Below are positions 37,238 through 50,351 of a DNA stretch of 64,000 bases, one piece after another. How positions within the stretch are numbered: position 1 is the first letter of the stretch; every line of letters begins with the position of its first letter. The notes below the pieces were generated by a model that was not told the DNA's origin, made no database searches, and saw nothing but the letters and a program-made list of their open reading frames with translations. A program made the position numbers and the translations under genes. Source of the stretch: a virus (Duplodnaviria > Heunggongvirae > Uroviricota > Caudoviricetes); IMG/VR virus record IMGVR_UViG_3300045988_145635. The stretch is one strand, 5' to 3'.

Positions 37238-38113
37238 ATGCCATTACTGCGTGAAGAAGCTGAAAAGCTGTCTAACAACGAACTTGAACAGGGTGTGATC
37301 GAAACTATCATCGATCGCGATGACCTGTTTGCCATCCTGCCTTTTATGAAAATTAATTCAAAGGCATATCTGTACAACCGTGAAAAAACGCTGAGTGAAG
37401 CTACCTTCATCGACGTTAACGACACCATCCCTGAAGGTGCAGCAACCTTCGAAGAATGCGTTGCGAAACTGCGTATTCTGGCTGGTGACGTAGACGTTGA
37501 TAAATTCCTGGCGACCACTATGGCCGACACCAACAACCAGTTGGCTATTCAGGTTCGTCAGAAAGTTAAAGGTCTGGCTCGTGCGTTCCGTCGCAACCTG
37601 ATTTTGGGTGACTCCAGCTCCAACAACAAGGCGTTTGACGGCATTCCACGCCTGATGCACGCAGATCAGAAGATCGATATCGCCGGTGCATCTATGACTT
37701 TCTCTATGTTCGACGAACTGGTCGATGCGGTGAAAGATCTTGGTGCTGACTGCATCATGATGCGTTCAGAGCACCTGCGTGCTTACCGTGCGCTGCTGCG
37801 TACAGTAAACGTAGGTCCGTCTGAAATCATGATGGAGAACTTCGGTCGTCCGATGCTGTGTCATAACGGCGTTCCGTTCATCATCAACGACTTCATCCCG
37901 ACCGATGCTGGCAAAGCAAGCATCTACTGCCTGCATCTGTCAGAAGAGAACGGCGTTACTGGTCTGTATGGCGGCGATAACGCAGGTATCGTTGTTGAAA
38001 ACATTGGTACTGTACAGAACAAAGACGCAGTACGTACCCGTGTGAAGTGGTACTGCTCTCTGGCGAATAAGCACGATAAGGCTATCGCTGCACTGACCAA
38101 TGTAAAAATTTAA
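37238..38113 (+). CDS. Major capsid protein
   Basis: Position and size (291 aa); followed by a strong terminator. Confidence 0.6.
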   Translation: MPLLREEAEKLSNNELEQGVIETIIDRDDLFAILPFMKINSKAYLYNREKTLSEATFIDVNDTIPEGAATFEECVAKLRILAGDVDVDKFLATTMADTNNQLAIQVRQKVKGLARAFRRNLILGDSSSNNKAFDGIPRLMHADQKIDIAGASMTFSMFDELVDAVKDLGADCIMMRSEHLRAYRALLRTVNVGPSEIMMENFGRPMLCHNGVPFIINDFIPTDAGKASIYCLHLSEENGVTGLYGGDNAGIVVENIGTVQNKDAVRTRVKWYCSLANKHDKAIAALTNVKI

Positions 38114-38147
38114 TCAGTGTGGTAGATAAGCAATTATCTATGTTTAA

Positions 38148-38173
38148 GGGTGGGCTATACGCCCACCCTTTTT
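38148..38173 (+). terminator. Terminator after the capsid gene
   Basis: GGGTGGGC-TATA-GCCCACCC followed by TTTTT. Confidence 0.6.
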
Positions 38174-38186
38174 GTAGGAGCGAGAA

Positions 38187-39107
38187 ATGCCAGAACAAAA
38201 GATGAAGATTACGGAAGAGGCATTTTCGGATTTTACGGGGCATATGTGCCGCGCCGGATTTACCAATTCTATCTCCGATGAACCTTTAACCGAGCGGCAA
38301 CAAAGTCAGCTATCTGCTTGTTTGCAGGCGGTTCCCCTCTCCCAATCCGTAAACATAACCCCGGCTTCACCGTCAGTTTTGGTTGGGAAAACTGTTCAAC
38401 TTAGTGCAGGTATTAGTATGGGTAAGAGTGCCAGTTCATTCACCTGGAAGTCAGCGAATGATCAAATTGCAACCGTTAACGGCACTGGATTAGTAACTGG
38501 TGTAGCACCAGGCAAAGTAAAAATTACTGCAACTGATCAGGAAACCCAGCTTTCCGCTTCAGTGGAAGTCACCGTAAATCCGGTAGCCGTTCAATCCGTA
38601 ACGGTAACGCCAGACTCAACCTCTGTTGAGAAAGGGAAATCAGTCAGTCTGAAAGCGAATGTTCAGCCGTCAAATGCGACGAATAAGGCTGTTACCTGGT
38701 CTTCCAAAAATGAAGATAAGGCAACGGTAGACCAGAGCGGGAACGTTACTGGTGTAGAAGTTGGCACTGCGACGATTGAGATCGTTTCCCAAGATGGCAG
38801 CAAAAAGGCAACTGCAACGGTGGAAGTAACTGCGCCTGTTGTAGCTGTTACCGGCGTCGAAATCGACCCAAATAGCACAACCGTTGAGGCAAACAAAACT
38901 GTTCAGCTGACCGCAAATGTCGAGCCGGCAGGAGCAACAAATAAAACCGTTACTTGGGAATCCAAAAATACCGAGTTTGCAACGGTGGATAGCGAAACCG
39001 GTGTTGTAACTGGCGTTGCGGCTGGTACTGCCACAATCGAGGTTACTACCCAAGATGGTAGCCACAAAGCGACAGCGACCGTAGAAGTCACTGCTGCACA
39101 GGAATAA
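38187..39107 (+). CDS. Ig-like (Big_2) repeat protein, probable capsid decoration protein
   Basis: Three tandem ~85-aa Ig-like repeats (VTVTP/VTGVE ... ATVD ... GTATIE). Confidence 0.6.
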   Translation: MPEQKMKITEEAFSDFTGHMCRAGFTNSISDEPLTERQQSQLSACLQAVPLSQSVNITPASPSVLVGKTVQLSAGISMGKSASSFTWKSANDQIATVNGTGLVTGVAPGKVKITATDQETQLSASVEVTVNPVAVQSVTVTPDSTSVEKGKSVSLKANVQPSNATNKAVTWSSKNEDKATVDQSGNVTGVEVGTATIEIVSQDGSKKATATVEVTAPVVAVTGVEIDPNSTTVEANKTVQLTANVEPAGATNKTVTWESKNTEFATVDSETGVVTGVAAGTATIEVTTQDGSHKATATVEVTAAQE

Positions 39108-39151
39108 TCAATATTGGGCGGCGAAAGCCGCCCAAGTGGAGAGAAAGCGTT

Positions 39152-39586
39152 ATGAAACCAGCAAAAATTGTTTTATTAGAACCGCAATTTTCCGGTTATT
39201 CGGGAATGCTGTGTGGCGTTCAGTTCGAGAACGGGGTGTCCGTAGCGGAGTTGCCTTTTATCGATCAGCAAAGGATTTGTGCCTCAATGCGAGCATCAAC
39301 AGTCGAGGGCAAAAATGTTTCTCCGTCTGCCGCATACAGTGATCGTGGCGAGTTGACCGCAGACCTGATTACCGAGCCAGCAGCACCTGACATTGTGCCA
39401 ATGAAACGTGGGACACCAGATGAACCGGCCAAACAGATCCAAACTTTCACACGAGAAGAGTTGGAGTCAATTGCAGACAATGAAGGCATTGCCGGTCTAC
39501 GTGTGATTGGTAATCAGGTTGGTGTCAAAGCGAAAGGAATTGTCGAGATGATTGAAGGCATCCTGAAAGCACAAGGCGGTGAGTAA
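39152..39586 (+). CDS. Virion morphogenesis protein, function unknown
   Basis: Position in the head-tail joining block. Confidence 0.45.
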   Translation: MKPAKIVLLEPQFSGYSGMLCGVQFENGVSVAELPFIDQQRICASMRASTVEGKNVSPSAAYSDRGELTADLITEPAAPDIVPMKRGTPDEPAKQIQTFTREELESIADNEGIAGLRVIGNQVGVKAKGIVEMIEGILKAQGGE

Positions 39587-40419
39587 TGGCGCAGATCGAC
39601 TCGTATCGTAGCGGTGAAGCTGTTTCCCTTTCATTTGCCTTCAACGTGCTGGATATCGAATCTGCTACCTACACAGTAAAGGACAGCACCGGGGCTATTC
39701 TCGTTGATGGCGAGCCGCTAGAAATTACCAGCGGTCAAATGTCGATTCCGGTTGTCGTGTCGGCTGAATATAACCAGCTCTCTGAGAAAGAACGCGATCT
39801 GCGGTACGTCATTGTGAAGGCTGTTGCATCGGGTCTGACGCATGAAGAGCGGCAAATGTATGTTCTGCTGAATAGTTTTGAACTGTCGATACCAGAACAG
39901 TCGTTTGCAACTGTCGCTGATGCTCAAATGCAGGCGATCGATATGCTGAATGGGGACACTTTGCTGTCGGATGGTGAAGGCTTAATGCGCAAGCGTCTCA
40001 TTGAGGCTACCAGACGAATTAAAACTTTACCGTTCTCAATCCGCAAAATTCTACGTATCGACTTTGACCGATACGATCGCCCTCAAAATATGCTGAATGT
40101 GTATGACATTCCGTGGGGAGCAGATGGAGCGTACCGGCATGATTTAGTCGATTGGGAAAAGATGACGCAGGAGAAGTTTGAAGAGTTCCCTGACTACTTC
40201 AAAGAAGCGTTGATGCTTGCCGTTGTCAACGAAGCGTGTGAGATCGCAAATGGCAATGATGTTGCCGCAGCACGAGAGGATGGCATTTTGTCAGAGTCCA
40301 TCGGTGAAACAACCAACATGTACCGTACCGGTAAAGCCGCAAGCGTGCATGTGGCTCGCAGTACCTGGCGCTTGCTGGTCAGTTACATCAACAACCGTAT
40401 GATTGTTCGCCGTGCGTAA
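39586..40419 (+). CDS. Virion morphogenesis protein (head-tail connector region)
   Basis: Position; start overlaps the upstream stop. Confidence 0.45.
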   Translation: MAQIDSYRSGEAVSLSFAFNVLDIESATYTVKDSTGAILVDGEPLEITSGQMSIPVVVSAEYNQLSEKERDLRYVIVKAVASGLTHEERQMYVLLNSFELSIPEQSFATVADAQMQAIDMLNGDTLLSDGEGLMRKRLIEATRRIKTLPFSIRKILRIDFDRYDRPQNMLNVYDIPWGADGAYRHDLVDWEKMTQEKFEEFPDYFKEALMLAVVNEACEIANGNDVAAAREDGILSESIGETTNMYRTGKAASVHVARSTWRLLVSYINNRMIVRRA

Positions 40420-40498
40420 CGCCAGTCGCATTATTTACTTTTGGTCTAAAGGGTTTTTGGCCAGTAATGAGAGCGACCGACAACAACAGGGAGAGAGC

Positions 40499-40843
40499 AT
40501 GAATATTTCATGGCAAACAGAAATTGCGATCTACCGCTTTGGCGCAAAGAACGTTTACGGTGAGGCGCAATTACAATTCGTCAGGAAGACGAATGTCGGC
40601 GTGGTTAAGTTCGAACAGAGTAATGAGAAATCGTCAGTTCGTGCTGATAGCTCTGGTAGTCGTGGTAAGGCGAGTCTGGAGCTGTTTGATGCTGTGTTAG
40701 TTGTCCCTTTAGAAGCGGCTGTACAACTTGATGATGTACTGATCCTTGAAGGTCAAAAATTAAAGGTGTCCAGTGTTCATCGCCGCTGGGGGCTACGAGG
40801 AAGACCTGGGCATCTTGAAGTAGGGGCGAATATATGGGTCTGA
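40499..40843 (+). CDS. Head-tail joining protein (putative)
   Basis: AGGGAGAGAG RBS; position. Confidence 0.4.
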   Translation: MNISWQTEIAIYRFGAKNVYGEAQLQFVRKTNVGVVKFEQSNEKSSVRADSSGSRGKASLELFDAVLVVPLEAAVQLDDVLILEGQKLKVSSVHRRWGLRGRPGHLEVGANIWV

Positions 40844-41307
40844 AATACGATGCGCATCAGTTCAAACGTGCGGGGAATCGACTCAACAACAGCCAGAAAG
40901 CATTTAAGCGATATCTTATTCGGGACATGGAAAAGCTGGCGCGTTTGGTTGAGCGTCTCAGCCGTGCAATGGCCCCGCTGGAAACCGGATCTCTGGAGAC
41001 AGCCATCTTTGCCAGGGTGATTAAAGAAGGTTATTCAGGGCTGCGTATTGAGCTTTCTGTGTCTGGAGCAAAACCACGTCAGGGGCATCCGGGCGTAGAA
41101 GTCGGTGACTATGCTAAGTACATGGAGCTGGGTAAATACCGACTCGGTTATCTTTCTCGAATGAAGAGCGTGACAAACCCACCAATTGCCGGTGTTAAAC
41201 CTCGTGTTGGGCCACACTTTCTGGAAAGAGCGGTGGAAATTAGCGAGAAGCAGTTCTCAGAAGCGATTCTTGAGGCTGCCAGAAAAGCCGGTTTTACGAG
41301 AGGTTAA
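40834..41307 (+). CDS. Tail completion / head-tail joining protein (putative)
   Basis: Position. Confidence 0.4.
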   Translation: MGLKYDAHQFKRAGNRLNNSQKAFKRYLIRDMEKLARLVERLSRAMAPLETGSLETAIFARVIKEGYSGLRIELSVSGAKPRQGHPGVEVGDYAKYMELGKYRLGYLSRMKSVTNPPIAGVKPRVGPHFLERAVEISEKQFSEAILEAARKAGFTRG

Positions 41308-41308
41308 T

Positions 41309-41692
41309 GTGTTTATTGAAGCGTTTGCAAGTTTGATGCAGAAGGCAAAGATTGGCACGGTCGGGACTGACATTTTCTGTCACTACTTGCCTGCCAATGT
41401 GAAATCTGGCGTCCTGCTTATTAACCCAAATACCGGTATCAGCATCGATCATGAGCTACAGGGCTTTTATCACGAATCATTCACAATCATTGTGCGTGGT
41501 TCGTCAATTACTACGACGGTTGAGAAAGCCAATAAAATCATTGAGATGTTTCCAGTAGAGGAAACGGAATCTGGTGGTGTTTATTTTCGACTGGTACGAC
41601 CGATGGCGATGCCAATCATTTATCCCAAAAATGATGGGGCATTAATAGAAGCAGGCATTCCTGTTGAATTTGCTGGCTATTTATTGAATTAA
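41309..41692 (+). CDS. Tail terminator-like protein (putative, GTG start)
   Basis: GAGAGG RBS then GTG; position immediately before the tube gene. Confidence 0.4.
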   Translation: MFIEAFASLMQKAKIGTVGTDIFCHYLPANVKSGVLLINPNTGISIDHELQGFYHESFTIIVRGSSITTTVEKANKIIEMFPVEETESGGVYFRLVRPMAMPIIYPKNDGALIEAGIPVEFAGYLLN

Positions 41693-41766
41693 GTTAATCG
41701 GTAAGTATATACTTACTATTAGCGCAATGAATGCGTAGAATTAACGGAAAAAGGAGTTTTCCATCA

Positions 41767-42513
41767 ATGTCTAATACCCATGTAAAAAACATCAAACTTG
41801 GTGCCTGTAAGGTGTCGTTTGGTGGTGTGGATTTGGGTTACACCAAAGGTGGTGTTCAGGTTGAAGTAGCCACTGAAACGCTGAAAGTCACCGTCGATCA
41901 GTTGGGGCAGACCGTAATTTCCGAATTAGTTCAGGGGCGCAACATTACCATCACCGCGCCTCTGGCTGAGTCTGTACTCCAAAACATGGTTGACCTGATG
42001 CCTGGTTCTACTCTGAGCGAAGATGACAACTCTGTCACGATCACATCTGCACAGGGCGTTAACCTGATTGATGTGGCGAAGGAGCTGGTTCTGACTCCGC
42101 AGGACACCACCGACTATGTGTTGACCATCCCGAAAGCGGCAACCGCGGGCAACTTCACTATGACCTACCAGTCTGATGATGTTCGTGTGTTCTCTGTTCA
42201 GTTCAGCGCATACCCGGATGATGAAGGCGTTCTGGGCAAAATGAGCGGCCCTAAACCGGTAAAAACTGTGTCGATCTCACCGGAATCTCCAACCGTAAAA
42301 GCTGGAGAAACTGTGCAACTGACAGCCGAAATCACTCCAGCTGATGCCGCAGACAAAACCGGTGTTTGGGAATCCGAAGACCAGGAAAAGGCCACGGTAG
42401 ATCAAACGGGTCTGGTACGTGGTGTGGCGCAGGGTTCTACAAATATTTCCTTCACCAGCAATAGCGGTGGTAAGAAGGCAACTAAGTCAGTAACGATTAA
42501 CCCCGCAGATTAA
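41767..42513 (+). CDS. Major tail tube protein with C-terminal Ig-like (Big_2) domain
   Basis: AAGGAG RBS; C-terminal VSISPESPTVKAGETVQLTAEI ... ATVDQTG Ig-like repeat (lambda gpV-like layout); terminator after. Confidence 0.65.
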   Translation: MSNTHVKNIKLGACKVSFGGVDLGYTKGGVQVEVATETLKVTVDQLGQTVISELVQGRNITITAPLAESVLQNMVDLMPGSTLSEDDNSVTITSAQGVNLIDVAKELVLTPQDTTDYVLTIPKAATAGNFTMTYQSDDVRVFSVQFSAYPDDEGVLGKMSGPKPVKTVSISPESPTVKAGETVQLTAEITPADAADKTGVWESEDQEKATVDQTGLVRGVAQGSTNISFTSNSGGKKATKSVTINPAD

Positions 42514-42568
42514 TCAGTAATTAAGCAGAGGCTCAGGATGGGCCTCTCTTTTAAAAGGATTTTAACCA

Positions 42569-42886
42569 ATGACCAAATTACTCGATCTCGATTCCATTCT
42601 GCCTCCGAAGAAAAGCATCAAATTTGGCGGTCAGGAATATCCCATCGTTGAAATGACGGTAGGTCTGTTCGTTTCCATCAAGCAGATGGAAGGCAAAGAT
42701 CTCATGAACATGTCTCCTGTTGAGCAAGTGACAGCTTATGCAGATCTGGTTCGTAAGGTTATCCCTTCAGTACCTGACGAAGTTCTTGAAAAACTGACTG
42801 TTCCGCAACTCCAGCAGATCTTCACCTTCGCTATGGAAGTGATTGATGAAGAAAACGAAAAAGCGGCTGGCGAAGGGGCAAAGTAA
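42569..42886 (+). CDS. Tail assembly chaperone (gpG-like)
   Basis: Position before the tape measure; a downstream -1 frame stays open to 43236. Confidence 0.6.
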   Translation: MTKLLDLDSILPPKKSIKFGGQEYPIVEMTVGLFVSIKQMEGKDLMNMSPVEQVTAYADLVRKVIPSVPDEVLEKLTVPQLQQIFTFAMEVIDEENEKAAGEGAK

Positions 42887-43236
42887 TTTCCCGCGATGAA
42901 TCCGGGACAAGGACCGTCTCAATAGATCTCGGATTCTATTTCAGTCGTGTAGTTGCTCACTACGCCGTGTCGCCATTAGAGCTACTGAACGTTCCTCTCA
43001 CGATGTTCTGGATGCTCAGTCGCAATATAGACCGTCTGCGTGCGGAAGAGGATGTCCGCAACTTACAAGTCGCTCGTGCGTCCCAGGCGGATGGCGAGGC
43101 TGTGAAGGCGTTCATGGAGGGTTTGCAACTCAGGATTGGAAGACCAGTCGTAACAGATAAAGTCTACGATCCAAGCCAGGATAAGGCAGACCCTGACGCC
43201 AAAGAGCAACTGATGCAAATATTTGGCAGAGGATGA
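42862..43236 (+). CDS. gpT-like extension (putative -1 frameshift product GT)
   Basis: Frame -1 relative to G is open from 42850; A-run GAAAAAG at 42857-42863 is a candidate slip site. Confidence 0.4.
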   Translation, partial: SGWRRGKVISRDESGTRTVSIDLGFYFSRVVAHYAVSPLELLNVPLTMFWMLSRNIDRLRAEEDVRNLQVARASQADGEAVKAFMEGLQLRIGRPVVTDKVYDPSQDKADPDAKEQLMQIFGRG

Positions 43237-43243
43237 CAAGGGA

Positions 43244-46200
43244 ATGTCACAAAACGTAGAGTTTATCCTGTCGCTGGAAGACAAACAGTTTACAGCGTCA
43301 ATCGATCGTGCGGGGAAACTGCTTACTCGATTTGGTGAGCAGGTAACAAAGCCTGCTCAAAAAATCCAAACCTTTGAACGCTCTTTGGGTTCGGTCGCCC
43401 GTATCATTGGCGTTCTGGAAAGCAAGCTCGATTCTACGGCAGATAAACTACAGGATGTAGCTGCCGGTTTTGAGCTTGCTTCAGATGCTACGCGTAAAAT
43501 GCGTGGCAACATCACCAGCCTCAATTCTGGTCTTAAAGCCCTGATTGAGCGCGTCGATACGACAACTTCTTCAGTAGATAAACTCACCGCGTCATTACGT
43601 AAAGTGCAATCAGAGCTAAATGATTTCTCTGATTGGGCGACCTATGCAAGCAAAAGCGCAAGCCGCTTTGGTACGGAGGTCAAAGAAGCCTCTGTGTCCG
43701 TGAGTGGCATGAATACGCGCCTTAATACCACGACGAAGCGACTCAGTAATTGGGGTGTCACAACGAGTCAGGCTGCCGAGGGACTGAAAAAGGTTCGTGA
43801 GCAGATGGACGAAGTTATCGGACGTCAGCAACTGATTAGCAAGCCGGTACGCGTTCGTACATCTGGAAGTGGCGATGGTGGTAGCGGGCGGCGTAGCGGC
43901 GCTTCTGGCCATAGCGGTAAAAGTAACGAAGGAGGTATGTTCTCTGGCCTTCGTGGCAACATTTTCCTGCTTGGCGAGATCGGAGATGCAGCCAGAACGG
44001 TTACTGACATCATGTTTGGGTGGCAGAAGCCTATTGTTGAAGCTGCGGCCGAAATGGAACGTATGCGGGTGATGCTTCGAGGGTTGAATAAGGAGAAGTC
44101 CAACCCGGGCCAGGCTGCCGCTGATGATATGAAGTACATCGTAGACATGGCTCAAAATGCGCCGTTCGCGATGCAGGCGTTAACAGACTCCTTCGTGAAG
44201 TTTCGTTCTGCTGGCTTAGATCCAACCGATGGTTCTCTGAAGGCGCTGGTGGACTCCGTTGCTCGTTTTGGTGGTGATAGTGAGCTGTTGAAACGTGCGG
44301 CTGTGGCCGTTCAGCAGATGTCCGGTAAGGGCGTTGTGTCAATGGAAGAGCTACGTCAGCAATTAGGTGAAGCCGTTCCTAACGCGATGCAGGCAATGGC
44401 AGACGCCGCAGGCATCACTATGGGGGAACTGACTAAAGCCGTTGCCAGCGGTACGGTTGAGGCAAAACAGGCGTTGTCTCTGATGTTTGTTGGTCTGCGT
44501 GCGGAGAATGAGAACGCAGCGAAAGACATGATGCAAACCTACACAGGTGCGCTGGCGCAACTTCAGACGTCATTCACGTTATTTGCTGATCGGGTTGGTC
44601 AGGCCGGATATCTGGATTCTCTATCGAAGGGGATGAAAGAACTGGCTTCAATCATGAATAGCGCCGAAGGGATTTCGTTTGCCAATTCTTTAGGTTCGGG
44701 GTTAACAACGGCAATCGATGGGTTGCGTCAGCTTGCTCAATGGTTAGCAAAGAACCAAGAGCTGGTAATTAATCTCGGTAAGGTCGTGGCCGCGATGGTT
44801 GCGTTCAAACTGATGCGAGCAGGGATCATGGGGGTAGTTGGCGCTGGGAGCCAGATGGTTAGCACCTTTGCCACTATGGCGACCGCCATACAGACTCCAT
44901 TTAACCTCGGCGCTACAGCAGTAACTCGATTCAATCGTGCGGCACGTATGGGGCTGGCTCCGATCCCCTCTCTTATTTTCGCCATCCGTGGGGCGATTAC
45001 GGGGCTTAAAGGCGCTTTTGCTGGCTTGACTGCGTTTATTGCGGCGAATCCGATAGGTTTTGTTTTCACTGCTGCAATGACCGCTGTTGCTGGCTTAATC
45101 ACGTATATGACCATGCTTCGTAGCGAAACTTCAAAGGTCGTTGACGAGATTAGGAAAATACCAGAAGCGATGACGGCGGCCAAACGTGCACAGATGGCGG
45201 AGTATAAAGCGCGTCTCGAGCAACAAATCACGCAAAAGGAACAACAGTTAAAATCTGGCGAAAAGGTGGTTTATGGGCCGGGTATGGCCGGAACCACAGT
45301 AAAGATTGATCAGGATGAACGGAAGCGAATAGAAACTGGGCTAAATGATCTTCGTAAGGAACTCGATAAAACTACTGGGGCTATTGAACGTGGAGACACA
45401 GCTGTTGCAAAACGTCTTGCAAAAGATGCGGCAGAATCACAGATAGAGAAAATACTCGAAGAGAATAAAGACTTTGCGGCAACATTCGTTAAATCTCGTC
45501 AGGAGGCTCTGGAGAAGATTCAGAAAATCAAGGATGACGGTTCACTTTCAGATGACGAAAAGAACAAGCTATTGGCACCGTTACGTGAAACGGTAAACAA
45601 AAGCTATCTGAAACCAGCGCAAGAATTGGTTGATTCACTTTCTTCTCGTAAGAATGCTGTCGAGGGGCAAATAGCCACTCTTAATGATCAGCTTGAAAAA
45701 GCGAAAAAGGAAGGAAACACCGAGCAGATCAAGAAACTGCAAGGCAGTATTCGTGGTTATCAGGAGAATTTGGAAGTCGTCGCTCAGGAACTGACTCAGG
45801 CAGAGTTTAAGAGGGATAACGCGGCCAAAAGTGGTAATGGCTTAATGTCAGTCAATGGAGATGTTCTTGGGTTAGGTACAACTGATAAAGCTGCTCAGAA
45901 GGCGCTGGCGCAATATATGCGAAACCAGATGGATTCTGCGACTTATCAACGTACTTTGCCTGACGGCACTCCGATGATGGACTTCGAAGGTAAGCCGATT
46001 ATTGGGCCTAAACAACTCAAGACGCAGCTTAATTTGCAGAAAGCATCCAGTGCCAGCTCTCTGGAGAAAATGAGCGATGAAGAGCGTGCCGCAGCCATTG
46101 CCGCACTGACTAAAGCTCGTGAACAGGATGCAGCAGCAGCCGAGAAAGCAGCCCAACGATCAGCTAACGCCTCGCAGCGTGCGGCCAAGAAGGAACAGGC

Positions 46201-47821
46201 AGCGCAACAGAAACTGGCAGCCGGATACCAGAAGGCTCTGGACAAAGCCGATCAGCTTATGGGGCAAATGGGTGAAAGCTCTAAGGCTACGGTATCGTTT
46301 GATCAGTCTCTTCGCGATACAACGAAATCGCTGACAGATTTGGCTAATGCGGTTCCTAACGAGTTCATCACTCAAGAGATGATCGACAAGGCGAAAAAAC
46401 GTCTTGAAGACCTCAAAAATGCGACACCTGAATATCGCGAGATGTTTAATCGCCGCAATGTTGAGCAGATGATCTCCACTTGGGCACCGGAGGCGGATTC
46501 CATTATTAGTGCTGGCTATACGCCGTCTCGCGAAGAGAAAGTTGCTGATTTCGAAGACACCTACAACCGCAATCTCAAAGCGTTGATAGAACTTCGTGAT
46601 AAGGCGTCTGATCCTAAAGTCGTGGCGCTTTATACAAAGAAAATCAATCAACTTATTGCTGCTGGCAATACCGCGCTCATTAAAGAGACAGGGACTGCGA
46701 CGCAGAAGTTGGCACTGGAATACGAAAACCTGGCAGAGCAGATCGAAAGCACCTGGACTGATTTGTTTAGTGGCTTAACGGATGTCCTGACTGATTTCGT
46801 TATTAACGGGAAGATGAGCTTCTCCAGCCTGTCTCAGTCCATTTTGAAAGATATCACCAATATGGTCGTGAAGTCGCAGATCACGCTGCCTCTAATGAAC
46901 ATGTTGGGGATGGGAACCACCGCAGCTGGTAGTTCACAGAGTGGTAATTTGCTCACCGGGGTTGCTTCCGCCGTTGCCAATCAAGGGGTACGAATGGGCA
47001 ACACTGTTAACGGCGACAAGTCGGTAGGAGAAGCCACGAAGGAGACGTCCAGTTCGGTAACTGGATTGGGGCAAACGACACAGCAGACCACCAGCGCAAT
47101 TGGCACAGCAACAAATGCGATTGGTAGCTGGGTATCAGGGCTATTTGATAGCACCGAAGCCAAAGATGCTGAGACAAAAGCAGTGAAGGATTCCATCTTC
47201 TCGATGCAGAACCTCAGCTCTGTTACCGGCGCTCTGTCTGCCGCGTTTGCAATGCTTGGAGCTAATGCTTCCGGCTCTGGTAATAAGTGGTTGAATTTCG
47301 GCGCGACAGTTGCATCTGGTTTGGTTTCAGTATGGGCTGGTGGTGGATTCGATGGATTGATGTCCGGTTCTTCTGGCTCAACTTCCGGGTTCAACAATCT
47401 GACCAGTTCTGCTGCCGATGGCACGAATGGTATTCCTGCAATTCCGAAGTTTGCAAATGGTGGCATATTCGGAAAAGACGGCGTGATCCCGCTCCGGGCA
47501 TACCAGAAAGGCGGTATCGCCAACTCACCTCAATTGGCGTTGTTTGGGGAAGGCGATATGAATGAGGCGTATGTTCCATTGCCTGATGGTCGAACAATCC
47601 CTGTAACGCTCAGTACCGATGGTATGAGTGGAGGAGGAAATGTTCTTTCTCCTGTATCAATTGAGATCAACGTCCATAGTGACGGTAGCACAACTGAATC
47701 CGGCGATACAGAAAGCATATGGAACAATGCCGCTCAACGGATGAAAGCAATCGCGCTTGAGACTATCGCTCAAGAGAAACGCCCTGGCGGATCACTCAAC
47801 CCAAACACTCAACGTAACTAA
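43244..47821 (+). CDS. Tail tape measure protein
   Basis: ~1525 aa, coiled-coil-rich, Gly-rich C-terminal region; terminator after. Confidence 0.8.
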   Translation: MSQNVEFILSLEDKQFTASIDRAGKLLTRFGEQVTKPAQKIQTFERSLGSVARIIGVLESKLDSTADKLQDVAAGFELASDATRKMRGNITSLNSGLKALIERVDTTTSSVDKLTASLRKVQSELNDFSDWATYASKSASRFGTEVKEASVSVSGMNTRLNTTTKRLSNWGVTTSQAAEGLKKVREQMDEVIGRQQLISKPVRVRTSGSGDGGSGRRSGASGHSGKSNEGGMFSGLRGNIFLLGEIGDAARTVTDIMFGWQKPIVEAAAEMERMRVMLRGLNKEKSNPGQAAADDMKYIVDMAQNAPFAMQALTDSFVKFRSAGLDPTDGSLKALVDSVARFGGDSELLKRAAVAVQQMSGKGVVSMEELRQQLGEAVPNAMQAMADAAGITMGELTKAVASGTVEAKQALSLMFVGLRAENENAAKDMMQTYTGALAQLQTSFTLFADRVGQAGYLDSLSKGMKELASIMNSAEGISFANSLGSGLTTAIDGLRQLAQWLAKNQELVINLGKVVAAMVAFKLMRAGIMGVVGAGSQMVSTFATMATAIQTPFNLGATAVTRFNRAARMGLAPIPSLIFAIRGAITGLKGAFAGLTAFIAANPIGFVFTAAMTAVAGLITYMTMLRSETSKVVDEIRKIPEAMTAAKRAQMAEYKARLEQQITQKEQQLKSGEKVVYGPGMAGTTVKIDQDERKRIETGLNDLRKELDKTTGAIERGDTAVAKRLAKDAAESQIEKILEENKDFAATFVKSRQEALEKIQKIKDDGSLSDDEKNKLLAPLRETVNKSYLKPAQELVDSLSSRKNAVEGQIATLNDQLEKAKKEGNTEQIKKLQGSIRGYQENLEVVAQELTQAEFKRDNAAKSGNGLMSVNGDVLGLGTTDKAAQKALAQYMRNQMDSATYQRTLPDGTPMMDFEGKPIIGPKQLKTQLNLQKASSASSLEKMSDEERAAAIAALTKAREQDAAAAEKAAQRSANASQRAAKKEQAAQQKLAAGYQKALDKADQLMGQMGESSKATVSFDQSLRDTTKSLTDLANAVPNEFITQEMIDKAKKRLEDLKNATPEYREMFNRRNVEQMISTWAPEADSIISAGYTPSREEKVADFEDTYNRNLKALIELRDKASDPKVVALYTKKINQLIAAGNTALIKETGTATQKLALEYENLAEQIESTWTDLFSGLTDVLTDFVINGKMSFSSLSQSILKDITNMVVKSQITLPLMNMLGMGTTAAGSSQSGNLLTGVASAVANQGVRMGNTVNGDKSVGEATKETSSSVTGLGQTTQQTTSAIGTATNAIGSWVSGLFDSTEAKDAETKAVKDSIFSMQNLSSVTGALSAAFAMLGANASGSGNKWLNFGATVASGLVSVWAGGGFDGLMSGSSGSTSGFNNLTSSAADGTNGIPAIPKFANGGIFGKDGVIPLRAYQKGGIANSPQLALFGEGDMNEAYVPLPDGRTIPVTLSTDGMSGGGNVLSPVSIEINVHSDGSTTESGDTESIWNNAAQRMKAIALETIAQEKRPGGSLNPNTQRN

Positions 47822-47863
47822 CTATCGACTGCCCCCGACGGGGCAGTCTTACAAGGATGTGAG

Positions 47864-48199
47864 ATGGAAAGACAGACGTTTAATTGGTATCCAGATTACG
47901 AATCTGAGAAAAGCGTAAAACCGAATGTAACGGTACTTAATTTTGGTGATGACTACGAGCAACGACAGGCTCAAGGTCTTAATCGTATTAAAGAAGAATG
48001 GTCGCTAACCTTTACCAGACCATACAACGAAATTAATGCAATCGATGACTTCCTGACTGAGCGAGCAGGCGTTGAGTCGTTCTATTGGGTTAATCCAAGA
48101 GGAAAACGGATTGTAGTTGTATGTGACAGTCATACGGTCAAGCGATATCAGGGGTACTGTGTCTTAACTGCTACATTCAGACAAGTATTTGAGGCTTAA
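47864..48199 (+). CDS. Minor tail protein, lambda gpM-like
   Basis: 111 aa; FGDDYEQR and WVNPRG motifs reminiscent of lambda M; position. Confidence 0.65.
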   Translation: MERQTFNWYPDYESEKSVKPNVTVLNFGDDYEQRQAQGLNRIKEEWSLTFTRPYNEINAIDDFLTERAGVESFYWVNPRGKRIVVVCDSHTVKRYQGYCVLTATFRQVFEA

Positions 48200-48281
48200 G
48201 TATCTGGATAAGTAAGTACTAATTTACTATCATTGTGGCGCTGACAGGATGTTAGCGCCTACTTATTTCAAGGATGAAACA

Positions 48282-48980
48282 ATGGGAATTAAAGCTGATA
48301 TTCAGAGCTTATCTCCCTCTGCACTCATTGAGTTGTTCGTACTGGATATGTCGAACACAACTTCAGGGGGGAAGCTATTCTTCCACGCCGGAACAAACGA
48401 ACTGATGCAACCGGTCGTCTGGCAAGGAGTGACATACGAGCCGTGGCCAATCAAAGCATCAGGCTTTGACAAAACTGGCCAGGGAACGTTGCCACGTCCA
48501 AAAATTCAGGTATCGAACTTTGCCGGAACTGTCTCTGCGGAAGTTCAGGCAAACGACGATCTTGTTGGCTGCCGCATTATTCGCAAGATGACACTGGCTC
48601 GCTTCCTCGATGCCGTTAATTTTAAAGACGGCAACCCAACAGCAGATCCAAACCAACATTTCCCGGATGAAATGTGGTTTATCGAACAGAAAACTCTCGA
48701 AACTCATCAGGTTGTCGAGTTTGAATTGTCCAGTGTGTTCGATTTGATGGGGGTGCAACTGCCGTATCGTCAGATCATTAAAAACACCTGCCCGTGGAAA
48801 TACCGAGGGCCAGAATGCGGCTATACCGGTCCATATATCGACAAAAATAACCAGCAGACGTCTATGTCTGGTGCGGATTACTGCACAAAACGTTATGACG
48901 CCTGTAATGCGCGTCGGAATTATTTTGTCGACGGTGTGATCCATTTTGGCGGATTTATTGGAGCTACGCGGTATGGGTAA
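48282..48980 (+). CDS. Minor tail protein, lambda gpL-like
   Basis: ARFLDAVNF and Cys cluster CPWKYRGPECGY ... C..C as in lambda L. Confidence 0.75.
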   Translation: MGIKADIQSLSPSALIELFVLDMSNTTSGGKLFFHAGTNELMQPVVWQGVTYEPWPIKASGFDKTGQGTLPRPKIQVSNFAGTVSAEVQANDDLVGCRIIRKMTLARFLDAVNFKDGNPTADPNQHFPDEMWFIEQKTLETHQVVEFELSSVFDLMGVQLPYRQIIKNTCPWKYRGPECGYTGPYIDKNNQQTSMSGADYCTKRYDACNARRNYFVDGVIHFGGFIGATRYG

Positions 48981-49770
48981 TAAAGCAATCCCTGAGCTTG
49001 GCTCTGACGTTATGCAGCAAATCTATCTCTGCGCCATAAATCGCTACCCTAATGAAGCGTGTGGCTTTCTGGTTAGAACTAATGGCGACAAATATCGCTT
49101 TATGGAAGCGCGGAATGTTTCAGAGAACCCGCAGAACACTTTTGTAATGCACGTTGACGACATTATGGCGGCAGAGGATGCAGGTGACGTAATCGCAATC
49201 TGGCATTCACATACTGATGAATCAGCAGAAGCATCTGATGCCGATCGTGCAGGCTGTGAAGCGACGGAAGTTCCGTGGATGATTCTGGCTATTCGCAAGA
49301 ATGTTGAGGGAGATGCCCCTTTCCATTTTAGCGAGATGAATGTGATCACACCTGATGGTTTCGAAATGCCATACCTGGGCAGACCGTATGTATTTGGCGT
49401 ATTCGATTGCTGGATGTTGTGTCGGGACTATTTGAAGCGTGAGTTTAACGTCGAACTAAACCCGAACGCACACCTGCATATTCCATCGTGGTACACCGGC
49501 GATAACGACATTCTCGACCAGAACTACCGAAACGAAGGATTGGTACGGCTTGCGCCCGGAACAGAACCTCAACGTGGGGACGTCTTCTTTATCCAATACG
49601 GAAAAATGCCTGACCACTGTGCGGTTTATATCGGCGATGGAATGATTCTTCATCACCAGATCGACCGTCTTAGTTGTCGTGCTTATTACGGCGGGATGTA
49701 TCAGAAACATACGACGCATCACTTGCGTCACAGAGACTTGCTCAAGGGAGATGAGACGTGTCTGAGTTAG
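48973..49770 (+). CDS. Tail assembly protein, lambda gpK-like (JAB/MPN + NlpC/P60)
   Basis: JAMM-like HSHTDESAEASDADR; second domain with conserved Cys/His (FDCWMLCRDY ... HCAVYIG). Confidence 0.7.
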   Translation: MGNKAIPELGSDVMQQIYLCAINRYPNEACGFLVRTNGDKYRFMEARNVSENPQNTFVMHVDDIMAAEDAGDVIAIWHSHTDESAEASDADRAGCEATEVPWMILAIRKNVEGDAPFHFSEMNVITPDGFEMPYLGRPYVFGVFDCWMLCRDYLKREFNVELNPNAHLHIPSWYTGDNDILDQNYRNEGLVRLAPGTEPQRGDVFFIQYGKMPDHCAVYIGDGMILHHQIDRLSCRAYYGGMYQKHTTHHLRHRDLLKGDETCLS

Positions 49771-50351
49771 TTCATGTGCAGCTTGGCGGCCCTATGGCCA
49801 AACATTTTGGCCGCCACTGGCATCTAAAGGTGCGCAATACAAAACAGGCTCTGGATTTAATTGAGGCCAACAAGCCTGGGTTTAAAGCATGGATGAAGCG
49901 CAATATCAAAACCTATGACCGTTACCACATCCAGATCACCAATAAACAGGGCCACAAGTGGTCTGTGGACGAGAGTGAATATCAGATGATGGGGCAGTCT
50001 GACAACATTGCAAAAATCCGCATTACCCCTGTTCCGCGAGGGAGCGGCGGATCTGCTTTTGGGTGGTTTCAGACGGTAGTAGGCGCCGCTTTGTTGGTTG
50101 TATCGGCGGTAATGATGCCTGCTTTAGCACCTCTCGGTTTGTCACTGATGATGGGTGGTATATCACAAATCATATCGCCGCAAGCCACTAACGAAAGTGT
50201 GAGGCAAGCGGATAATTCGAACTCATATTATTTCGACGGCCCTCAAAATACAGAAAACCAGGGAAACCCAGTACAACTTATCTACGGCGAGGAAATTCTG
50301 GTTGGCTCACAGGTTGTGAGTTCTTCAATCACGATTGACCAGCTAATGTAA
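49758..50351 (+). CDS. Tail assembly protein, lambda gpI-like
   Basis: Position; hydrophobic C-terminal segment; GTG start overlapping K. Confidence 0.6.
   Translation: MSELVHVQLGGPMAKHFGRHWHLKVRNTKQALDLIEANKPGFKAWMKRNIKTYDRYHIQITNKQGHKWSVDESEYQMMGQSDNIAKIRITPVPRGSGGSAFGWFQTVVGAALLVVSAVMMPALAPLGLSLMMGGISQIISPQATNESVRQADNSNSYYFDGPQNTENQGNPVQLIYGEEILVGSQVVSSSITIDQLM

Follow-up and report, generated by a model that had tools for sequence, protein, structure and literature searches.

Tail chaperone frameshifts and the G/T locus of the window

The G/GT pair of phage lambda and the conserved G/GT frameshift of the long-tailed phages were reportedly described by Levin in 1993 and by Xu in 2004, 2013 and 2014 (summarised in PMC5009743). 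Lambda needs the two products in a G:GT ratio of about 30:1 (PMC5009743). Regarding the slip sites, the minimal site for a -1 shift is a Z_ZZN tetramer, and six tetramers are prone to shifting in E. coli, with efficiencies of 0.26-5.6% when a strong pseudoknot is present and values close to background when there is no stimulator (PMC4066793). A_AAG is by far the best of them in E. coli, which has only one tRNA-Lys for both Lys codons (PMC4066793, PMC5009743). The two bases 5' of A_AAG also have an effect, which depends on how the tRNA that reads the NNA codon behaves at the wobble position, and the A_AAG-type -1 sites given in the same source include G_CGA_AAG, used in IS1222, and A_CGA_AAG in B. 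subtilis cdd (PMC5009743, where Licznar 2003 is cited).

We analysed a stretch of 64,000 nucleotides, hereafter the window. Over positions 41700-43400 it shares 99.8% identity with Escherichia phage Cyrano and 86% with Salmonella phage SSU5, and of 5426 complete E. coli genomes 232 have plasmids with near-identical DNA and the same G/T module. These identities and the occurrence on plasmids identify the window, by sequence, as an SSU5-like phage-plasmid. Furthermore, 798 PLSDB plasmids encode the T-frame protein, and they come from Klebsiella, Escherichia, Enterobacter, Yersinia and Salmonella. The G/T module is also found on Yersinia pestis plasmids of about 100 kb, as well as on Salmonella, Klebsiella, Enterobacter and Citrobacter plasmids.

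Judging by their families and order, the genes around G/T make up a siphovirus tail module of the lambda type, with tail terminator, major tail (Big_2), G, T and tape measure genes followed by gpM-like and gpL-like genes (Table 1). The major tail gene is the upstream neighbour expected of a G/GT pair; its start was taken from the Cyrano annotation, a longer ORF beginning at 41731. Two small ORFs lie between this gene and the tape measure gene, which is the G/GT layout.

Table 1. Features of the tail module and of the G/T overlap, in window positions
Feature	Position	Strand	Basis or remark
Tail terminator	41186-41692		Phage_tail_terminator_6
Major tail protein gene, C-terminal Big_2 Ig-like domain	41767..42513	+	Pfam Big_2, E 5.8e-26; PHROG major-tail families
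G-like tail assembly chaperone ORF (putative)	42569..42886	+	105 aa, zero frame, ends ...GCA AAG TAA
GAAAAAG, earlier-proposed slip site, probably non-functional	42857..42863	+	In the G/T overlap
Proposed slip site, hexanucleotide GCA_AAG	42878..42883	+	Core A_AAG 42880-42883; conservation
G stop codon TAA	42884..42886	+	Directly 3' of the slip codon AAG
T extension, -1 frame (predicted)	42883..43236	+	117 aa + stop; translation; phrog_1131 match
Candidate stimulatory hairpin	42892..42948	+	Inner stem 42898-42907/42927-42936, outer stem 42892-97/42943-48
Tape measure protein gene, downstream neighbour	43244..47821	+	Pfam TMP_3, Tape_meas_lam_C; phrog_1292

Two other observations concern the surroundings of the locus. 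Between the stop of the major tail gene and the start of G there is a stable hairpin (42523-42550, -14.7 kcal/mol, z -2.33) followed by CUUUUAAAA. In sequence it resembles a weak intrinsic terminator or attenuator, which could lower transcription into G, T and the tape measure gene; a scan for consensus terminators did not pick it up. Upstream of the head-tail connector genes, positions 38187-39107 encode a protein of 306 aa that the Cyrano and SSU5 records enter as an Ig-like-domain protein. Judged by eye, Ig-like units seem to be repeated in it, and it is probably a head decoration protein.

In the public records that we sampled (Cyrano, SSU5, PGAP RefSeq plasmids and metagenome gene calls) there is no annotation of slippage, and G and T are each entered as a separate 'hypothetical protein' CDS. 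A literature search for SSU5 in combination with frameshift or tail assembly chaperone returned nothing relevant.

Coding in the -1 frame beyond the G stop

The first-pass annotation put the end of the G-like ORF at 42886 and gave the -1 frame as open over 42850-43236, up to just before the tape measure gene. We checked the ORF and its translation and the end of G is correct, and so are the limits of the -1 frame, which has a TGA at 42847-49 and then remains open until the TGA at 43234-36 (128 codons). The T frame thus ends 8 nt before the tape measure ATG (43244), and in the window it overlaps G by 37 nt. Loss of the -1 frame in relatives had been named as one result that would speak against a frameshift; actually, the open frame is kept in every relative examined.

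The first ATG, GTG or TTG in the -1 frame of the window is at 42967, which is 81 nt past the G stop. Across 10 lineages the distance from the G stop to the first start codon in this frame ranges between +24 and +129 nt, and in 8 of the 10 this codon lies downstream of the conserved motif IDxGFYFSRV. In the start-less stretch between the G stop and the first start codon (42887-42966), the differences among 8 lineages fall 148, 70 and 322 times on codon positions 1, 2 and 3 of the -1 frame. The ratio of synonymous to non-synonymous codon differences is 220:198 in this frame, versus 50:356 and 57:344 when either of the other two is read, and the rest of T has the same substitution pattern. This comparison of lineages shows that the -1 frame of the start-less stretch is evolving as a coding frame. 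The open -1 frame is more than chance.

We also searched with the translation of the -1 frame from inside the overlap (tblastn), and it matched phages of Pseudomonas (ZY21, phiK7B1, nickie), Rhizobium (RHEph10, V1VFA-S) and Stenotrophomonas at 27-37% identity. The best alignments start at query residues 1-2 and several of them cover both annotated small CDSs. Furthermore, the window shares with these distant Pseudomonas, Rhizobium and Stenotrophomonas phages a motif (I/V)D(L/F)xF placed directly past the G stop.

An exhaustive search gave 226 clusters for the T family. The best 150 of these 226 clusters are all short, and in almost all of them the homology reaches residues 1-11 of the called T protein, as expected of ORFs truncated by the gene caller. 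No natural in-frame fusion of G and T was found among the same best 150 of 226 clusters, therefore the two-frame layout is maintained in them. When the fused GT was used as a protein query only 6 matches were obtained, mostly from error-ridden assemblies.

These results bear on the explanation that needs no frameshift at all, in which T is a separate small protein made from an internal start, either GTG 42967 or ATG 43003. It agrees with the records cited above, all of which annotate two CDSs. However, the called starts vary from one lineage to another over the range just given, and in the window they have no Shine-Dalgarno sequence that can be recognised by eye. Moreover, the most conserved motif of T is upstream of the called starts and under coding constraint, and the homology that reaches the first residues of the called proteins in the best 150 of 226 clusters follows the truncated-ORF pattern. 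Distant relatives also carry in-phase canonical heptamers in the overlap, as described below. We consider a separately started T unlikely, although it is the best placed of the alternatives to a slip at the end of G.

Regarding the function of the two proteins, sequence methods are silent. Pfam gave no match for the G or T of the window, even at E values up to 10, and the alignment of profiles with lambda G and T (hhalign) gave probabilities of 0.5% and 0.2%. The G and T families of PHROGs are both of unknown function, and the sole Pfam hint is the match of the RHEph10 homolog to Phage_TAC_7, at an E value of 0.032, which does not reach the cut-off. Modest structural matches were found between the model of G and chaperone-named BFVD models, and also with the HK97 chaperone. 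In its fold, the model of G may resemble a tail assembly chaperone.

Candidate slip sites in the G/T overlap

From the gene order, the coding constraint and the distant homologs, we regard it as very probable that a G/GT -1 frameshift exists at this locus. Where the slip would take place is a different question, and the overlap of the window alone offers two candidates: there is no canonical in-phase X_XXY_YYZ heptamer in it and its only shift-prone tetramers are A_AAA (42859-62) and A_AAG (42880-83).

The relatives narrow the choice. In 32 of 88 close relatives the overlap has a length of only 13 nt, and the same length was found in 6 of the 10 lineages. In SSU5, for example, a TGA in the -1 frame leaves only AGGGGCAAAGTAA as the G/T overlap, and GCAAAGTA(A/G) is kept by all the close relatives. 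This TGA of the -1 frame, placed 13 nt ahead of the G stop, pins the slip site down: across the aligned sequences, only within the final 13 nt of G can a shift work in every member.

The end of G itself (42878-42886) has the form (GCA/GTA)_AAG_TA(A/G), and this is invariant in 88/88 close relatives and in 10/10 lineages, down to 52% identity in T. The more distant of these lineages were Klebsiella plasmids (72% T identity), a Photorhabdus contig, several metagenome contigs and the Pectobacterium plasmid Drgb1 (52%). None of these loci has GAAAAAG (they have GAA GCC GCG and the like), and in all of them G ends with GCA or GTA, then AAG, then TAA or TAG. Codon usage does not account for this: AAG is the minority Lys codon of the phage (39%), GCA and GTA make up 25-28% of their respective boxes, and A_AAG occurs in phase at only 0.5% of the codons. 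Therefore, the invariance of A_AAG at the end of G is not an effect of composition.

The zero-frame AAG is preceded by an A (GCA AAG, 42878-83), so that the end of G contains an NNA_AAG site. The codon before AAG varies between GCA and GUA and cannot re-pair, which makes this a single-tRNA A_AAG motif and not an X_XXY_YYZ heptamer. We place the tRNAs for GCA and GUA in the 'extended wobble' class, with which shifting at NNA_AAG is favoured.

We propose, with good though not full confidence, that the G and GT chaperones are made by a -1 slip at the last Lys codon, on the A_AAG that adjoins the stop. Most ribosomes would terminate at the TAA at 42884 and release G, with 105 aa. A small fraction would slip back one base at the last sense codon of G, where tRNA-Lys on AAG (42881-83) would re-pair with AAA (42880-82). 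The next codon to be read would then be GUA (42883-85), as Val, using the first two bases of the stop codon, and translation would go on to give GT, with 222 aa. The predicted product is join(42569..42883,42883..43236), with the junction ...AAGEGAK/VISRDESG.... Both the slippage itself and its rate are inferred, on comparative evidence. By analogy with lambda, G may bind the tape measure protein and T may recruit the major tail protein. GT is predicted to be present in a low, fixed proportion to G and to be needed in tail assembly.

The first-pass annotation had placed the slip at the GAAAAAG run, where tRNA-Lys would move from AAA 42860-62 to AAA 42859-61 and give the junction ...EENEK/SGWRRGKVISR. 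The idea has some appeal: T can be reached from the run in the window, where the -1 frame opens at 42850, A_AAA belongs to the six tetramers that are prone to shifting (PMC4066793), and the run is present in 88/88 close relatives. Nevertheless, in the G frame it reads GAA_AAA_GCG, which is out of phase for X_XXY_YYZ and at best leaves an A_AAA tetramer, the weakest of the six in E. coli and far exceeded by A_AAG (PMC4066793). The run is missing from 7 of the 10 lineages, where GAA GCC/GCA or GAA GAA stands instead. Moreover, 32 of 88 close relatives (SSU5 among them) and 6 of the 10 lineages have a TGA in the -1 frame between the run and T, created by a synonymous GGC>GGT change in G. The peptide that the slip would add, SGWRRGK, is not conserved, and the candidate hairpin is too far from the run (about 30 nt). 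GAAAAAG occurs 35 times across the window. We therefore judge a slip at this run improbable, even more so than a separately started T. In general terms the earlier claim of a G-T fusion by -1 frameshift is borne out by the synteny, the start-less coding stretch, the distant conservation and the putative chaperone-like fold of G, but the site it had proposed is not.

In one ENA assembly (P0001), among the matches to the fused GT query, the called G ORF runs ...EENEK/SGWRRGKVISRDESGTRTVSIDL and the frame is broken again soon after. A deletion of 1 nt in the A5 run joins G to the T frame there, which mimics the product of a shift at GAAAAAG. This fusion is most likely a homopolymer sequencing error.

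The use of the A_AAG site by some other route is very improbable: the sequence speaks against transcriptional slippage and +1 shifting, since the longest nearby homopolymers are A5 and G4, too short for slippage of the RNA polymerase, and the +1 frame closes at 42899; termination-reinitiation is conceivable, as the stop adjoins the site, but nothing else specific speaks for it, the T frame has no start codon near the G stop, and A_AAG is a classic -1 motif, which argues against -2 shifting and the other mechanisms alike.

Candidate stimulators and relation to known systems

If the slip takes place on A_AAG at the end of G, it should need help. In E. coli, A_AAG without a stimulator is barely above background (0.147% against a mean of 0.112% for all 16 tetramers; PMC4066793), and 19 other in-phase A_AAG are tolerated in the structural genes of the window (37238-50351). 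Thus, a stimulator is needed at the G site. The adjacent stop codon, a hairpin that begins 8 nt downstream of the slip codon, or both, may stimulate the slip.

The G stop (TAA or TAG) adjoins AAG in 10/10 lineages and it may act as a 'shifty stop'. Among the 12 structural genes of the region 37238-50351, 8 end with a stop codon followed by T (seven TAA-T and one TAG-T). UAA-U is a strong termination context, which argues against a long pause at the stop.

The candidate hairpin has a minimum free energy of -17.9 kcal/mol, with a z of only -0.76. Across the 10 lineages 94% of cells are paired and there are 1-2 compensatory pairs, a result equalled by 21 of 500 shuffles, and both arms encode conserved peptide. 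Synonymous divergence gave no sign of extra constraint in the hairpin region: its 27 codons have 220 codon differences, and the remaining codons of T, about 89, have 794. There is also a Shine-Dalgarno-like GGNGA located 6 nt upstream of the slip site in all lineages. It is confounded, because the same bases encode an invariant Gly followed by Glu or Asp.

If the proposal is true, there would be a natural, conserved -1 frameshift of the 'single-tRNA plus stop codon' kind across the SSU5 supergroup, which takes in the 798 PLSDB plasmids, the plasmids of the 232 E. coli genomes and those of Yersinia pestis and Salmonella. It would provide a system for studying the way in which a low fixed frameshift ratio is set by a stop codon or a weak hairpin. 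It would also mean that in a common family of phage-plasmids these genes should be annotated as tail assembly chaperone G and its slippage product GT, and not as two hypothetical proteins. The most conspicuous A-run of the overlap is probably the wrong site, and it is the -1-frame stop of the relatives that points to the right one. Such a locus would add a conserved natural non-heptamer frameshift, at A_AAG by the stop, to the tail chaperone genes; searches based on heptamers would miss sites of this type.

The locus is like lambda G/GT in several respects. The stretch from the major tail gene to the tape measure gene contains two small ORFs, of which the second is start-less, in the -1 frame and overlapping the first; the proposed slip site is near the G stop, and the model of G may be chaperone-like. 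However, lambda has the in-phase G_GGA_AAG, whereas here the sequence is G_GCA_AAG followed by the stop and the P-site tRNA cannot re-pair. G and T also have no detectable similarity in sequence to lambda gpG and gpT or to the chaperone families of Pfam.

The sites of IS1222 and B. subtilis cdd are closer in this sense, because a single tRNA-Lys moves from AAG to AAA and the 5' codon ends in A without re-pairing. In cdd the event also takes place at the end of the gene. In contrast to both, the 5' codon is here GCA or GUA and not CGA, the setting is a phage tail chaperone and the stimulators are only candidates.

The distant phages ZY21, nickie, RHEph10, V1VFA-S and BUCTxx99 have homologous G and T (25-37% identity) in the same gene order. 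Theirs are canonical in-phase heptamers, namely C_CCA_AAG (ZY21, nickie), G_GGA_AAC (RHEph10, and also a Pararhizobium plasmid), G_GGA_AAG (V1VFA-S) and A_AAA_AAA (BUCTxx99), and unlike in the SSU5 group their G stop comes 1-9 codons further on. These heptamers are located 8-15 codons upstream of the (I/V)D(L/F)xF motif and, in the alignment of G, at about the same columns as the GAK of the SSU5 group. From this alignment, the SSU5 group appears to have kept the A_AAG half of the heptamer, lost the re-pairing in the P site and moved the stop against the site. It is a tentative suggestion that the whole SSU5 supergroup makes GT at a minimal A_AAG fused to the G stop, in place of the heptamer that the distant relatives have kept. 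The mechanism as such is known from the systems above; the SSU5-like locus is a previously unannotated member, with a slip site of a less common class.
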